From Escherichia coli (lineage in GTDB: Bacteria; Pseudomonadota; Gammaproteobacteria; Enterobacterales; Enterobacteriaceae), in NCBI RefSeq assembly GCF_001677475.2, contig NZ_CP015229.1: DNA of 64,000 nt, one strand, 5' to 3'. Shown in pieces: positions 56,686 to 63,725 of the stretch. Below the pieces are notes generated by a model, which was given only the letters and a program-made list of their open reading frames with translations, made no database searches and was not told where the DNA came from. Positions within the stretch are counted from its first letter, which is position 1, and the number at the start of each line of letters is the position of its first letter. Made by a program: the position numbers and the translations under genes.

Positions 56686-57468
56686 TTAACCACCATAAAC
56701 ATCAAAATCGAAGTACTTTTTCGCTAATTTCTCGTAAGTACCGTCAGCGCGCATTTCGGCAAAGGCTTTGTTCAGTGCCTCGCGCAGTTCGTTATCTTCT
56801 TTACGCAGGCCCATGCCGGTCCCTACGCCAAACAGTTTTTCATCTTTAACAGACGGGCCACCGAATTTGTAATCTTTACCGACGGGTTGTTTGAGGAAAC
56901 CTTCACTGGCAGCGACCTCATCCTGGAACGCGGCATCAATACGTCCGGCAGTCAGGTCAGAATAAATGTTGTCCTGCCCCTGATAAGAAACGATTTCAAT
57001 GCCTTTTGGTGCCCAATGTTCGTTACCGAACGTCTCCTGGGTGGTGCCCTGCAATACGCCTACCCGTTTGCCTTTCAGCGACTCGACTGTCGGCTGAATA
57101 TCGGAATTTTTCGCCACCACCAGACGAGAATCGGCAGCGTACAGTTTGTCGGTGAAGGCTATTTCTTGCTGACGTTTTTCCGTAATGGAAAGCGATGACA
57201 TGATGGCGTCAATCTTCTTCGCTTTTAAGGACGGGATTAACGCATCCAGCGGGTTTTCGACAAACGTACATTGCGTATTGATGCGCTTGCACAACTCCTT
57301 CGCCAGATCGATATCGAAGCCAACCAGTTCGCCTTGTGAATTTTTTGATTCAAAGGGCGCATAGGTCGGGTCGGTACCGATGCGGATGTTTTGCGGAATC
57401 TCAGCAAATGCCGCAGTTGCGCTGGAGAAGGCCAGAACCAGAGAGAGCGATAGCACCAGTTTTTTCAT
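56686..57468 (-). CDS. hisJ: Histidine-binding periplasmic protein
   Basis: 260-aa ORF with signal peptide [22 protein letters not shown]...; matches HisJ. Confidence 0.96.
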
Positions 57469-57688
57469 AATGTCCTCAACTGACAGTCTTTTTATAGGGA
57501 ATATTTACAGGTTTGTTACACTTATCGTGCCATAAAATTGACCATCAAGGCAAAATATCCCGCCCCGTTAGATGTATTATTTTTCATTAAAAATGCTTAA
57601 GTATGCATTTCAATGCACCACGATAGTGCAACAAACCTGGCGTGCACCATGATGATCATTCCATCAGGTACAGCTTCCCAGCGACGTA

Positions 57689-58471
57689 TCAGTCACCGTA
57701 GACATTAAAGTCGAAATACTTTTTCGCCATCTTGTCGTAGGTGCCATCCTGACGCAGCTCGCCAAGCGCCTTATTAAACGCAGCCGTCAGTTCAGCATCA
57801 TCTTTACGTAGCCCTACACCGGTGCCGTCACCGAAGTATTTTTTGTCTTTCACTGATGAGCCAGCAAAGGCGAACTCTTTACCGGCGGGTTGCTTGAGGA
57901 ATCCTTCGCTGGCAGCAACCTCATCTTGTAACGCAGCATCCAGACGTCCTGCAGCCAGATCGGAATAGACCAAATCCTGGTTGGCATAGGCCACCACATC
58001 CACGCCTTTGCTACGCCAGGTCTCGTTAGCGTAAGCTTCCTGGGTTGATCCCTGCAGCACACCCACATGTTTACCTTTCAGTGAATCCAGCGTTGGCTGA
58101 ATCGGTGAACCTTTGGCAGCAATCAAACGAGAATCTGCGGCGTACAGCTTGTCGGAGAAAGCAATCTCCTGCTGACGTTTATCGGTAATGGAAAGCGACG
58201 AAATAATAGCGTCGATTTTTTTCGCTTTCAGTGAGGGAATCAGCGCGTCAAAGTCACTGGCAACCCAGGTACATTTCACCTGCATCCGTTTGCACATCTC
58301 GTTACCGAGATCGATATCAAAGCCAACAAAATCACCTTTAGCATCTTTCGACGAGAACGGCGCATAGGTGGTATCGGTTCCGATACGTACCGTCTCCGGT
58401 AGCGCCGCATAGCTGGAAGCCGCTGCGGAGAGACCGACTAACAAAGACAGAGCGAGAATCGACTTCTTCAT
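57689..58471 (-). CDS. argT: Lysine/arginine/ornithine-binding periplasmic protein
   Basis: 260-aa ORF with signal peptide [22 protein letters not shown]...; a paralogue of hisJ; matches ArgT. Confidence 0.96.
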
Positions 58472-58736
58472 ACATAACCCTCAAGTGAAAATGGCTTTTT
58501 TATGTTGTGTATTGTGTTGTGTGTTTGCAGGCTCTTTCATGCAGGTCTTATGCCATCTTGACGACAACAGTAACATTCAACGTTAAATATGTTAATAAGA
58601 CGTTGCATTATTGTCCTGAAGTTGAAGATAGCAGGTATAGCGGTTGAATCGCAGCGTTTCGATTGAATGGCAGAAACAAAATGTCGAGGATTTGATCGCG
58701 GTTGCAAAATTGCCCTGAAACAGGGCAACAGCGGAG

Positions 58737-59306
58737 TTATGCGCCCTGCCAGCGGGCAAAGAGATCTTCAGGAAGCGTTATGGCGAATTGATCGAGTACA
58801 CGGTTAACCGTCTGATTTATCACATCATCAAGGGACTGCGGGCGATGATAAAACGCCGGAACGGGAGGCATAATCACCGCACCGATTTCTGCCGCCTGAG
58901 TCATTAAACGCAGATGGCCTAAGTGCAATGGTGTTTCACGCACGCAGAGCACCAACGGGCGACGCTCTTTCAGCACCACATCTGCCGCACGGGTCAGTAA
59001 ACCATCGGTATAGCTATGGACAATGCCGGAAAGGGTTTTGATTGAACAGGGTAAAATCACCATCCCCAGCGTCTGGAAAGAACCGGAAGAGATGCTGGCG
59101 GCAATATCGCGCGCATCGTGCGTCACATCGGCTAAAGCCTGCACTTCGCGCAGGGAAAAATCCGTTTCGAGGGATAAGGTCTGGCGCGCCGCCTGGCTCA
59201 TCACCAGATGCGTTTCGATATCTGTGACATCGCGCAGAACCTGTAATAAGCGCACGCCATAAATCGCGCCGCTGGCACCGCTGATGCCTACAATGAGTCG
59301 TTTCAT
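58737..59306 (-). CDS. ubiX: Flavin prenyltransferase UbiX
   Basis: 189-aa ORF MKRLIVGISGASGAIYGVRLLQVLRD... matching UbiX. Confidence 0.95.
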   Translation of the reverse strand: MKRLIVGISGASGAIYGVRLLQVLRDVTDIETHLVMSQAARQTLSLETDFSLREVQALADVTHDARDIAASISSGSFQTLGMVILPCSIKTLSGIVHSYTDGLLTRAADVVLKERRPLVLCVRETPLHLGHLRLMTQAAEIGAVIMPPVPAFYHRPQSLDDVINQTVNRVLDQFAITLPEDLFARWQGA

Positions 59307-59400
59307 AAATAGTTGCCCTGTCAGACTTGCAGGCAGACTTTGCAGGATTTCGGCAGGAGTTGCAAGTCAGGGTGCCAGACCGGCACCCTGAGCGAAGGCA

Positions 59401-60918
59401 TCATCCTTCGTTATGCATTTCGAGATTTTCCACTTCGTTCTGACGTTGCACTGCTTTGGCGTCGTCATTACGTAAAGTATCGAGGAAATCGAGGTAGCCC
59501 TGATCAACATCTTTGGTGACGTAGACGCCGTTGAACACCGAGCATTCAAACTGCTGGATATCCGGGTTTTCAGCGCGAACGGCGTCGATCAGATCGTTCA
59601 GATCCTGGAAAATCAACCCGTCAGCACCGATGATCTGGCGAATTTCATCTACTTCGCGACCGTGAGCGATCAGTTCCGTAGCGCTCGGCATATCGATACC
59701 GTAAACGTTCGGGAAGCGAATTTCCGGTGCCGCAGAAGCGAGGTACACTTTCTTCGCTCCGGCTTCGCGTGCCATCTCGATAATCTGCTCAGAAGTGGTG
59801 CCACGGACGATGGAGTCGTCGACCAGCAGGACGTTTTTATCGCGGAACTCGGCGCGGTTGGCGTTCAGTTTACGGCGCACGGACTTACGACGCAGCTGCT
59901 GGCCCGGCATGATGAAGGTGCGGCCAACATAGCGGTTTTTAACGAAGCCCTGGCGGTACGGTTTGCCCAGAATACGAGCAATTTCCAGCGCGATATCACA
60001 CGAGGTTTCCGGGATCGGGATCACCACGTCGATATCCAGATCTTCCCATTCACGGGCAATTTTCTCGCCCAGTTTCGTGCCCATATTCACACGCGCGCTG
60101 TAAACGGAAATTTTGTCGATAAACGAGTCCGGACGGGCAAAGTATACATACTCAAACAGGCACGGATTGCTGACCGGATTGTCAGCACATTGACGGGTAA
60201 ACAACTGCCCTTCTTCAGTGATGTAAATCGCTTCGCCAGGCGCGACGTCACGCAGGAAATCAAAGCCTAGTGTATCGAGCGCAACGCTTTCGGAAGCGAC
60301 CATATATTCTGTGCGGTTCTCGTCAATATCACGTTTTCCCAGTACGAGCGGACGAATCCCGTTAGGATCGCGGAAAGCAACCATACCGTGGCCGATAATC
60401 ATCGCCACACAGGCATACGCGCCGCGGATTAAGCGGTTTGTAGCAGCGATGGCGGCGAAAATGTTGTCGGCTTCCAGCGGGTAGTGGCGGAAGTTGTCCA
60501 GTTCGCTGGCAAAGATATTAAGCAGAATTTCCGAGTCGGAAGTGGTGTTGATGTGGCGGCGTTTTTCTTCAAACAGTTTTTTACGCAACTCGTGAGCGTT
60601 GGTCAGATTGCCGTTGTGGGCAAGCGTAATGCCATACGGGGAGTTAACGTAAAACGGCTGCGCTTCAGAGGCGCTGGAGCTGCCAGCCGTAGGGTAACGC
60701 ACATGACCAATGCCCATATTGCCCTGCAAACGCTGCATATGGCGAGCTTCAAATACATCGCTCACCAGCCCGTTCGCTTTACGCAAACGGAAGCAGTTAT
60801 TGGCATCTATGGTGATGATGCCGGCGGCATCCTGACCGCGATGCTGAAGCACCGTTAAGGCATCATAAATCGACTGGTTAACCGGCATAACACCGGCGAT
60901 ACCGACAATACCGCACAT
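59401..60918 (-). CDS. purF: Amidophosphoribosyltransferase
   Basis: 505-aa ORF beginning MCGIVGIAG (N-terminal nucleophile Cys) matching PurF. Confidence 0.97.
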
Positions 60919-60954
60919 ACGTCTTTTTCCTCGTTAAGCCACATCTCAGAGCAC

Positions 60955-61443
60955 TTACGCTCTGGGCAAGAAACTTGACGAGCTTTGCAGATAATCAAAA
61001 AACCATCTGATGATAAAACTGAACTGCGGGATTAGCTGTGATTTGCTCCAGTCTTCGCTTTTCGACACCCCGGTAAAGGAGTCGAGAAAGAAGAGAATGG
61101 CGGCAACAATCAACACACCGCGCAACGCACCGAAACAGACGCCCAGCACCCGATCGGTGCCTGACAACCCCGTTTTCTCCACCAACTGGCCTATCACGAA
61201 GTTCACGATAGCACCAACAATCAGGGTAGCGATAAACAGTACCGCGATGGCAATCCCATTTCGAACCAGTTCGTCTTCAAAGCCCGTAAACCAGACTGAC
61301 AGGTAAGTGTAGTAATGACTGGCAACAAAGAAAGCACAACCCCATGTCACCAGCGATAACGCTTCACGAACAAAGCCGCGGATCAGGCTAACCAGAGAGG
61401 AAAAAGCAATCACCGCGATTATGGCGTAATCAATCCAGACCAT
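60955..61443 (-). CDS. cvpA: Colicin V production protein CvpA (inner membrane)
   Basis: 162-aa membrane ORF MVWIDYAIIAVIAFSSLVSLIRGFVREALSL...; first gene of the cvpA-purF-ubiX operon. Confidence 0.94.
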   Translation of the reverse strand: MVWIDYAIIAVIAFSSLVSLIRGFVREALSLVTWGCAFFVASHYYTYLSVWFTGFEDELVRNGIAIAVLFIATLIVGAIVNFVIGQLVEKTGLSGTDRVLGVCFGALRGVLIVAAILFFLDSFTGVSKSEDWSKSQLIPQFSFIIRWFFDYLQSSSSFLPRA

Positions 61444-61500
61444 ATGTGTCCCACGATTTTACGCCCTGTCATCCTGTTCGGGGCGCATTCTAACAGAAAA

Positions 61501-61516
61501 AGAAAACGTTTGCGTA
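61501..61516 (-). promoter_or_regulatory. PurR operator (PUR box) of the cvpA-purF operon
   Basis: Minus-strand sequence acgcaaacgttttct(t) matches the PurR box consensus ACGCAAACGTTTTCNT with the palindromic core AAACGTTT, about 60 bp upstream of the cvpA start. Confidence 0.8.
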
Positions 61517-61599
61517 GGGATTTCCTTCCCGCGCATCAATAAAAATGGCGCTGAAAAAATATTCAACGCCATCGACTTTTTATGCCTTTGCGGCATCGT

Positions 61600-61695
61600 G
61601 CAATGCGTGTCGGATGCGGCGTAAACGCCTTATCCGACCTACGGTTCTACCCCTGCGTAGGCCTGATAAGACGCGCCAGCATCGCATCAGGCAAG
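61600..61695. repeat. REP/BIME cluster between dedD and cvpA
   Basis: gtcggatgcggcgtaaacgccttatccgacctacg and gcctgataagacgcgccagcatcgcatcaggc are close matches to REP consensus units in opposite orientation. Confidence 0.8.
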
Positions 61696-61701
61696 ACCGT
61701 A

Positions 61702-62364
61702 TTAATTCGGCGTATAGCCCATTACCACGCCACTTAAGCCAGAAAGTTGCTTCAACTCACCCAGCGAACCTTTCAGCTTATCTTTCGAGGCATCCGGCCC
61801 AACCAGAATACGGGTAATTTTACCCTGCACTGGCGTGGATGGCGACGTATAAACCCGATAACCGGCACCGCGCAGCTTACCGACAATCTCATTCACTTTA
61901 TCGGCATTTTTCAGCGCACCCAGTTGCACAACATAGGCTTTACCCGTCGGTGCAGCTTTTTCTTCCACGACCGGCTTCGGTTCTGGCTTCGGCGCAGGTG
62001 GTGCTTCAACCTTTGGTTTAGGCGGCTCCACCGGTTTCGGCTTCGGTGGGGCGACCGGTGCAGGTTCCGGTTCAAACTCGGTGTTATTGGCTGCAATAGT
62101 GGCCGGATCGAGCGACGGTGCTGCGGCATCACCTGCCCGCACCTCTTCCGCTGCGCCTTCCGGCGGCTGCGTCGGCAACGCCTGGGTGGCGGCTGGCATC
62201 ATATCAGGCTCATCGCGATCGCCCGCTTTTGGAACCAGCGGGATAGCCGCAAACTCATCCTGATAATGTTTTTTCTGCCCGTCCAGAAGCCCTGGAAGTA
62301 CAATCACCCCCAGCGCCACCAGCACGATCGTGCCCACTAACCGATTCTGAAACTTACTTGCCAC
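61702..62364 (-). CDS. dedD: Cell division protein DedD (SPOR domain)
   Basis: Track ORF begins at a TTG (62382); the known 220-aa protein begins (M)ASKFQNRLVGTIVLVALGVIVLPG... from GTG 62364, which overlaps the folC 3' end by 11 nt. Pro/Lys-rich linker and C-terminal SPOR region. Confidence 0.9.
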   Translation of the reverse strand: MASKFQNRLVGTIVLVALGVIVLPGLLDGQKKHYQDEFAAIPLVPKAGDRDEPDMMPAATQALPTQPPEGAAEEVRAGDAAAPSLDPATIAANNTEFEPEPAPVAPPKPKPVEPPKPKVEAPPAPKPEPKPVVEEKAAPTGKAYVVQLGALKNADKVNEIVGKLRGAGYRVYTSPSTPVQGKITRILVGPDASKDKLKGSLGELKQLSGLSGVVMGYTPN

Positions 62365-63655
62365 CGCTTCTCCTCGCGTCAATCACTTCCATGACATGTG
62401 CGACCGTGTGGAAAGAACCACACACCAGCACGGTGTCTTCCGCTTTAGCGTCCGCCATTGCGGCATCCCATGCCTGCGCAACGCTATCAAATGATTTGCC
62501 GTTACCCAAATGCTCAAGCAGTTGTTCTGCCGTGGCACCGCGCGGCCCTTCCAGTGGCGCACAATACCAGTCATCAACCACGCTTTTCAACCAGGCCAGA
62601 GTTCCGGCAATATCTTTATCATGTAGCATACCGATAACCGCCAGCACGCGCCCGTTTTTCGGTAGCGCTTTCATACGCCCGGTGAGATATTCCGCCGCAT
62701 GTGGATTATGCGCGACATCAAAAATAACGCGAGGCGACTCGCTCACAATCTGGAAACGTCCCGGCAAAATTGCGCTGGCAATCCCGTCGCGAATGGCAGT
62801 TTCACTGACCTCCAGCCCGCTGGCACGCAGTGCCGCCAGCGCCGTTGCGGCATTCGGTTGTGGGACAAGCGGCAACGGCAGGTTTTCCAGCGTGCCGTGA
62901 GCATCGCTAAACGCCCAGTCATGATCGGTGACGGAATAGTTCCACTCAACGCCCCGACGTTGTAACAGTGCACCTTTTTCCTGCGCCACATCAGCAATGG
63001 TAGAAGGCATTTCCGGCTCACCGACAATTGCCGGTTTTTCGCTGCGAAAGATGCCTGCTTTCTCGCGACCAATGCTTTCGCGATCTGGCCCCAGCCAGTC
63101 AGTATGATCCAGCGCAATGCTGGTCACCACAGCCACATCAGCATCGACAATATTGGTGGCATCCAGACGACCACCCAGCCCCACTTCCAGAATTACCACA
63201 TCAAGTTGCGCCTGTTTAAACAGCCACAGAGCCGACAACGTGCCGTATTCAAAATAGGTCAGGGAAATATCACCGCGTGCCGATTCAATCTCAGCAAAAG
63301 AGGCGGTGTGAGCCGATTCAATCTCAGCAAAAGAGGCGGTGTGAGCCGATTCCGGCAATTCCTGGCCCTGCACACGAACGCGCTCGGTATAACGCACCAG
63401 ATGAGGCGAACTGTAGACGCCCACTTTGTACCCTGCCACCATCAGAATCGACTCCAGCGTACGGCAGGTGGTGCCTTTGCCATTCGTACCCGCAACGGTA
63501 AACACAAATGGCGCTGGTTTCAGAACGCCAAGACGCGCCGCGACCTGGCTCACGCGCTCAAGGCCGAGATCGATAGTTTTACTGTGCAGGTTTTCCAGAT
63601 AAGAAAGCCACGAAGCCAAAGGCGACGCGGCTTGAGGTGTGCGTTTGATAATCAT
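62354..63655 (-). CDS. folC: Dihydrofolate synthase / folylpolyglutamate synthase FolC, carrying an 11-aa in-frame tandem duplication
   Basis: 433-aa ORF MIIKRTPQAASPLASWLSYLENLHSKTIDLGLERV... matching FolC except for a duplicated SAHTASFAEIE block; K-12 FolC is 422 aa from memory. Confidence 0.93.
   Translation of the reverse strand: MIIKRTPQAASPLASWLSYLENLHSKTIDLGLERVSQVAARLGVLKPAPFVFTVAGTNGKGTTCRTLESILMVAGYKVGVYSSPHLVRYTERVRVQGQELPESAHTASFAEIESAHTASFAEIESARGDISLTYFEYGTLSALWLFKQAQLDVVILEVGLGGRLDATNIVDADVAVVTSIALDHTDWLGPDRESIGREKAGIFRSEKPAIVGEPEMPSTIADVAQEKGALLQRRGVEWNYSVTDHDWAFSDAHGTLENLPLPLVPQPNAATALAALRASGLEVSETAIRDGIASAILPGRFQIVSESPRVIFDVAHNPHAAEYLTGRMKALPKNGRVLAVIGMLHDKDIAGTLAWLKSVVDDWYCAPLEGPRGATAEQLLEHLGNGKSFDSVAQAWDAAMADAKAEDTVLVCGSFHTVAHVMEVIDARRSGGK
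63279..63344. repeat. Perfect 33-bp direct tandem duplication (2 copies) inside folC
   Basis: The unit gccgattcaatctcagcaaaagaggcggtgtga occurs twice back to back in the sequence; boundaries are approximate to within 1-2 nt because of flanking microhomology (gccgattc). Confidence 0.9.
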
Positions 63656-63684
63656 GGTATCCGCTGATTCATTACGGGGATAAT

Positions 63685-63716
63685 AGCAAAAGGGCAGAGC
63701 CAGTGGCCCTGCCCTT
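63685..63716 (-). terminator. Candidate stem-loop / terminator between accD and folC
   Basis: agggcag-agccagtggcc-ctgccct hairpin followed on the minus strand by TTTTGCTATTAT. Confidence 0.5.
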
Positions 63717-63725
63717 ATCAGTTAT

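Follow-up and report, generated by a model that had tools for sequence, protein, structure and literature searches.

The dedD start codon of Escherichia coli lies inside the 3' end of folC, behind a conserved Shine-Dalgarno sequence

Introduction

The gene pairs trpE-trpD and trpB-trpA are classical examples of translational coupling with ATGA or TAATG junctions. Classical coupled pairs are co-directional, share one mRNA and have the Shine-Dalgarno sequence of the downstream gene within the upstream coding region (PMC12548453), and the folC-dedD pair of Escherichia coli is similar to them in all of these features. In the classical pairs the stop and start codons are spaced by -4 or -1 nt and dependence of the downstream gene was demonstrated, whereas folC and dedD are spaced by -11 nt, a geometry reported to be less efficient (PMC12548453). 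According to the review of Brown and Wade (PMC12548453), coupling works best between -4 and +3 nt, falls faster with growing overlap than with growing spacing and is absent at -25. Huber et al. (PMC6728339) showed that four of five E. coli pairs with a 4-nt overlap were coupled while one was not, and that Shine-Dalgarno motifs aid re-initiation as well as de novo initiation.

The pairs secE-nusG and dnaT-dnaC resemble folC-dedD in another way. There, the Shine-Dalgarno sequence of the downstream gene is built from rare AGR arginine codons at the upstream gene's 3' terminus, and recoding of AGR to CGU is impossible unless the strength of the binding site is restored (Napolitano et al. 2016). 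In this study, the folC-dedD junction was analysed in a 64,000-nt stretch of E. coli DNA (contig NZ_CP015229.1), hereafter the window.

Results

Overlap of folC and dedD

Near the end of the window the minus strand carries the genes accD-folC-dedD-cvpA-purF in that order, which matches K-12. The folC coding sequence (62354..63655, minus strand) encodes 433 aa with Mur_ligase_M and Mur_ligase_C domains, and the dedD coding sequence (61702..62364, minus strand) encodes 220 aa. The stretch shared by the two genes, read directly from the sequence, is GTGGCAAGTAA, which is 11 nt long and covers 62354..62364 on the minus strand. The 3' end of folC reads AGG AGA AGC GGT GGC AAG TAA, while dedD reads GTG GCA AGT AAG TTT CAG AAT CGG from position 62364 and is translated as (M)ASKFQNRL, with its stop codon ending at 61702. 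The folC TAA (62354..62356) is located 8 nt downstream of the dedD GTG (62362..62364). A first inspection of the DNA, the sequence-only reading, had placed the dedD GTG 11 nt inside the folC 3' end, and this placement was correct. In the RefSeq annotations of both K-12 MG1655 (b2314 dedD, NP_416817.2; b2315 folC) and strain 33F4, dedD is 663 nt long and has an 11-nt overlap with folC. The overlap of the dedD start with the folC end is an already known, standard and experimentally confirmed annotation of E. coli.

The same reading held that the N-terminus ASKFQNRL could only be obtained from the GTG at 62364. The GTG is the real start, but the frame is open for 6 codons further upstream, to a TTG at 62380..62382 (minus strand) directly after an in-frame TGA, which gives an ORF of 226 aa. 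The GTG is thus not the sole formal route to that peptide.

DedD, a cell-division protein, consists of an N-terminal transmembrane segment, a Pro-rich linker and a C-terminal peptidoglycan-binding SPOR domain (Pfam PF05036, E = 2.7e-12, residues 141-214). The short N-terminus MASKFQNR is followed by the hydrophobic run LVGTIVLVALGVIVLPGLL, a putative single transmembrane segment as read from the sequence, and homologues down to 33% identity share this pattern. There were no amino-acid differences between the window DedD and that of K-12 (UniProt P09549), and the exact 220-aa sequence is named DEDD_ECOLI in the protein collection, where it occurs on at least 1,000 contigs. Among close relatives the length of DedD ranged from about 192 to 242 aa, as the Pro-rich linker has expanded or contracted.

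Experimental support for the start codon in K-12

The TRAINSPOTTER N-terminomics data of 2026 (PMC13245402, Table S1) place two N-terminal b2314 peptides at the GTG that the database gives as the start (NC_000913:2431682-2431684), namely MASKFQNR, residues 1-8, and ASKFQNR, residues 2-8. The b2314 row is flagged 'Ribo-RET, INRI' for initiation-profiling support, has elongation Ribo-seq support in addition, and gives no alternative or upstream start (PMC13245402). The 60-nt start context of dedD printed there for K-12 is identical to the window. Ribosome profiling and N-terminal proteomics of DedD, which the sequence-only reading had proposed as checks, are already published for K-12 and both point to the GTG; a downstream DedD start, the outcome that would have spoken against it, was not borne out, with peptides beginning at residue 1 or 2. 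The start codon and the N-terminus of DedD are established by these data. All start-site experiments come from K-12 and not from the window strain, with the junction and the DedD protein identical between both. The INRI-seq support for dedD is known indirectly, from the flag that the TRAINSPOTTER table carries (PMC13245402); a search for dedD in the available parts of the INRI-seq and kasugamycin translatome supplement texts did not find it.

Shine-Dalgarno sequence and recoding

The Shine-Dalgarno sequence of dedD, AGGAGA at 62369..62374 (minus strand), corresponds to the folC arginine codons AGG AGA, and its AGGAG core is separated from the GTG by a 5-nt spacer. The site has the form of canonical Shine-Dalgarno initiation, with a non-ATG start codon and a Shine-Dalgarno sequence 4-9 nt upstream, and its initiating ribosomes and protein N-terminus were mapped in K-12 at an identical junction. 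The duplex with the 3' end of 16S rRNA was calculated at -8.9 kcal/mol in the window; across the 81 Enterobacteriaceae sequences described below the energies ran from -5.7 to -9.4 kcal/mol, with -8.1 as the median. The window value was reached by only 2.2% of the 20-nt segments of folC, all of them at one other site.

The genetic need for this sequence was established in a recoding study (Napolitano et al. 2016, bioRxiv 10.1101/069385), in which the folC codons AGG AGA (nt 1249 and 1252) were identified as the dedD ribosome-binding site. Replacement of AGGAGA by CGUCGU, with a predicted loss of 99% of the ribosome-binding-site strength, was not tolerated, while the binding-site-preserving replacement CGG CGA worked (bioRxiv 10.1101/069385). 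As Shine-Dalgarno motifs promote re-initiation too (PMC6728339), the need for one is compatible with either de novo initiation or re-initiation.

Conservation within Enterobacteriaceae

A FolC scan gave a comparison set of 80 other Enterobacteriaceae species, or 81 sequences together with the window. The DedD N-terminus aligned from residue 1 at a GTG placed 11 nt before the folC end in all 80 other species. Neither the GTG and TAA nor the 11-nt geometry varied across the 81 sequences, while neighbouring synonymous sites did, and the pattern GTGGCNAGTAA was present in every one of them. The third base of the folC glycine codon GGT, which is four-fold degenerate and forms the middle base of the dedD GTG, was T in 81/81.

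The upstream purines were nearly as constant. The rare folC codon AGA was kept in 77 of the 81 sequences and was never CGN, the GGAG core was near-invariant, and the purine run RGGAGA was preserved although the FolC tail residues -6 (R/G) and -4 (S/T/I/N/A) varied. The last residue of FolC switched between K, E and Q, tracking the synonymous third base of DedD Ala2. Retention of AGA next to such a variable FolC tail indicates that the dedD start signals dominate selection there. Judged from these alignments, the arrangement of the folC/dedD junction exceeds what would be expected by chance.

The positions of the other possible start codons showed a different pattern. At the position of 62382, TTG was confined to Escherichia and to three species of Citrobacter and two of Kluyvera; the position was TAG in most Citrobacter (L008-L012 and others), Salmonella (L027) and Klebsiella/Raoultella, while most other genera had TGG there. 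Several downstream DedD valine codons are GTG in the window strain, and the in-frame codons 10, 14, 16 and 20 varied across species (GTT, GTC, GTA, GCG, ACA, ATT).

Within E. coli, the 71-nt junction was at least 99% identical in 5,284 of 5,425 complete genomes. K-12 (b2315/b2314) and the window strain have the same locus, 11-nt overlap, 60-nt sequence and DedD protein; they differ by approximately 1.8% of bases across purF-folC, mostly synonymously, and by an extra in-frame 33-bp duplication in folC of the window strain, far from the junction.

Distant relatives

The N-terminus M-x-x-x-F-Q-N-R-L-V-G was found at the same position in DedD homologues down to 33% identity. Eight distant loci kept the order accD/folC/dedD/cvpA/purF, except that L085 has a pseudouridine-synthase gene rather than accD upstream of folC. 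The folC/dedD spacing in these loci was -11 (three loci), -8, +3, +8, +8 and +63 nt. The three with -11 have DedD homologues of 36-57% identity, one of them at only 36%. Several of the distant loci had in-frame stops 6-21 nt upstream of the dedD start. Their dedD start codons were ATG, GTG or TTG, with GTG or TTG in 5/8, and with GTG in all 80 other Enterobacteriaceae a weak non-ATG start seems to be a persistent trait of dedD. Overall, the close juxtaposition of folC and dedD is old, and the exact overlap is one among several workable geometries.

Transcript, RNA structure and translation levels

The two co-directional ORFs follow each other without intergenic space. In the K-12 data of Burkhardt et al. 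(PMC5318159), folC had an mRNA level of 159.5, a ribosome density of 145.4, a translation efficiency of 0.912 and a Shine-Dalgarno score of -1.7. The corresponding values for dedD were 154.4, 61.8, 0.401 and -7.8, and those for accD were 853, 751, 0.881 and -4.98 (PMC5318159). The mRNA of folC and dedD is equal in K-12, which indicates one transcript, and the ribosome density of dedD is approximately 0.43 of that of folC (PMC5318159).

Promoter-like matches in the folC-dedD region numbered 2, against 1.7 expected in shuffled sequence. An internal dedD promoter in folC, for which there was one 9/12 consensus match at 62590..62561, was rejected on the shuffled-sequence counts and the equal mRNA levels. 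A consensus scan found a terminator-like hairpin in the accD-folC spacer (63690..63716, minus strand), with a 12-bp stem and 8 GC pairs, 35 nt upstream of the folC ATG. The drop in mRNA from accD to folC in K-12 (853 to 159, about 5-fold) is consistent with this hairpin and suggests that folC-dedD expression depends for the most part on accD transcription that is attenuated or reads through.

Downstream of dedD, the same scan gave a pattern match for a second terminator-like hairpin (61544..61573, minus strand), in which a 12-bp stem is followed by the T-run TTTATTGATG; this is the probable 3' end of the folC-dedD transcript. The spacer between dedD and cvpA has further features of its own. 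Palindromic units are located just downstream of the dedD stop at 61590..61700, one containing GTCGGATGCGGCGTAAACGCCTTATCCGACCTAC and a second, inverted, containing GGCCTGATAAGACGCGCCAGCATCGCATCAGGC; we take them to resemble REP/BIME elements. The sequence GAAAACGTTTGCGT near 61497..61512, upstream of cvpA, is presumably PurR-box-like.

The fold of the 136-nt junction RNA was no more stable than that of shuffled sequence (z = 0.10), and a 31-species consensus fold had neither a helix over the Shine-Dalgarno bases nor compensatory pairs. The Shine-Dalgarno bases had a predicted unpaired probability of 0.61 and the start codon one of 0.86, compared to 0.39 for the surrounding context. In vivo, the DMS Gini index of dedD from -20 to +40 was low (0.275), which indicates little structure (PMC5318159).

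The folC duplication and divergence of the window strain

The folC gene of the window contains a perfect 33-bp tandem duplication at 63279..63352 (minus strand; 2.2 copies, 100% match). It is in frame and adds 11 aa (ESAHTASFAEI twice), so that FolC has 433 aa instead of 422. FolC aligned end to end with PDB 1W78 (E. coli FolC) except for the 11-aa insertion after residue 108. None of the 5,424 matching complete RefSeq E. coli genomes spanned the duplication in one piece. NCBI does list the exact 433-aa FolC for E. coli (ANO90106.1 and further accessions; 14 contigs), which suggests either a rare natural allele or an assembly feature that recurs.

Positions 57000..64000 of the window were approximately 1.8% diverged from K-12. 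The best match to a 2.4-kb folC-dedD query among 5,426 complete E. coli genomes, L001, was still approximately 1.4% diverged (57 mismatches in 4.1 kb). This divergence is unusually high for E. coli. As it consists of ordinary synonymous polymorphisms, the segment is probably from a divergent natural lineage or recombinant. A synthetic recoded genome was rejected, since the synonymous changes are scattered and ordinary and no systematic codon swaps were found.

Discussion

The sequence-only reading took the overlap to imply translational coupling of dedD to folC. Such coupling is plausible but not established, as an overlap alone proves no coupling. The account that we favour with good confidence is Shine-Dalgarno-driven initiation at the GTG of the folC-dedD mRNA, able to work without folC translation and with re-initiation as an option. 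dedD would be the second cistron of the folC-dedD message, with translation beginning at the GTG (62364..62362). The strong Shine-Dalgarno sequence in the last folC codons (AGGAG, 5-nt spacer) would direct this start, and initiation would be of the ordinary Shine-Dalgarno-dependent kind at a weak GTG codon. The site would be usable without folC translation and would yield approximately 40% of the folC ribosome density. Ribosomes ending at the folC TAA, 8 nt past the GTG, may add some re-initiation that would not be required. Partial coupling of dedD to folC is therefore a possibility within this account, in which the balance between de novo initiation and re-initiation at dedD is inferred.

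In the cell-free INRI-seq assay each template carried the first 153 nt of an ORF, preceded by only 30 nt of upstream sequence (PMC9825163). The INRI flag of dedD, on a template that lacks the folC start, thus implies that ribosomes can be recruited to the dedD start region even when folC is not translated from its own start codon. Since the 30-nt leader includes an AUG that is in frame with folC, a short upstream ORF might still have been translated in that assay. No published premature-stop test of the dependence of dedD on folC translation was found in the literature.

Strict coupling by termination-reinitiation, in which ribosomes at the folC TAA would back up 8 nt and restart at the GTG so that DedD scales with FolC, is the strongest of the alternatives and is nonetheless unlikely. 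It would fit the overlap on one mRNA with equal abundance and the -11 geometry that is invariant in the 80 other species and recurs in the three more distant homologues. The coupling of four of the five 4-nt-overlap pairs and the help of Shine-Dalgarno motifs in re-initiation (PMC6728339) are also in line with it, and the weak dedD GTG could gain from delivered ribosomes. However, the -11 spacing, near to the published optimum, is outside it and in the reported declining range towards -25, where there is no coupling (PMC12548453). The dedD start was flagged on the cell-free template without a folC start, its Shine-Dalgarno sequence is strong and predicted to be accessible with no conserved occluding structure, and the ribosome density ratio of 0.43 also counts against strict coupling. 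In addition, relatives with gaps of +3, +8 and +63 nt share the same DedD N-terminus, which shows that the overlap is not needed for function.

A more elaborate proposal is that the exact -11 geometry, with its GTG, strong Shine-Dalgarno sequence and folC stop 8 nt further on, is a selected device that sets the DedD:FolC synthesis ratio through occlusion by terminating ribosomes and re-initiation. We regard this as improbable, clearly more so than strict coupling. If true, it would tie the capacity for septal peptidoglycan synthesis to the expression of a folate-pathway enzyme.

Coupling by RNA unfolding, in which a hairpin would hide the dedD Shine-Dalgarno sequence and GTG until opened by ribosomes translating folC, has very little likelihood. 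The 48-nt segment from -30 to +15 did fold at -7.2 kcal/mol, which is somewhat more stable than the reported median of -5.1 kcal/mol for annotated E. coli starts. Against this stand the 136-nt fold that equals shuffled sequence, the 31-species consensus with neither a Shine-Dalgarno helix nor compensatory changes, the high predicted unpaired probabilities and the low in vivo DMS Gini index. A structure sequestering the dedD ribosome-binding site was rejected on the fold, the consensus and the accessibility. A true DedD start elsewhere, at the upstream TTG 62382 to which the frame is open (226 aa) or at one of the downstream GTG codons 10, 14, 16 and 20, is the least probable of all and was rejected on the poor conservation of these codons and on the K-12 peptides, and a downstream start would also truncate the transmembrane segment, which together with adjacent residues was reported to be important for DedD function (PMC7642682).

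Beyond correct annotation, the dedD/folC overlap matters little, and it cautions against reading coupling from overlap alone. It has practical weight for genome recoding, where the change of the AGR codons at folC-dedD failed. Finally, folC-dedD illustrates cleanly how the start signal of one gene can be embedded in the 3' end of its neighbour, and the dedD Shine-Dalgarno sequence and start codon have more influence on the folC tail than the function of the FolC protein has.
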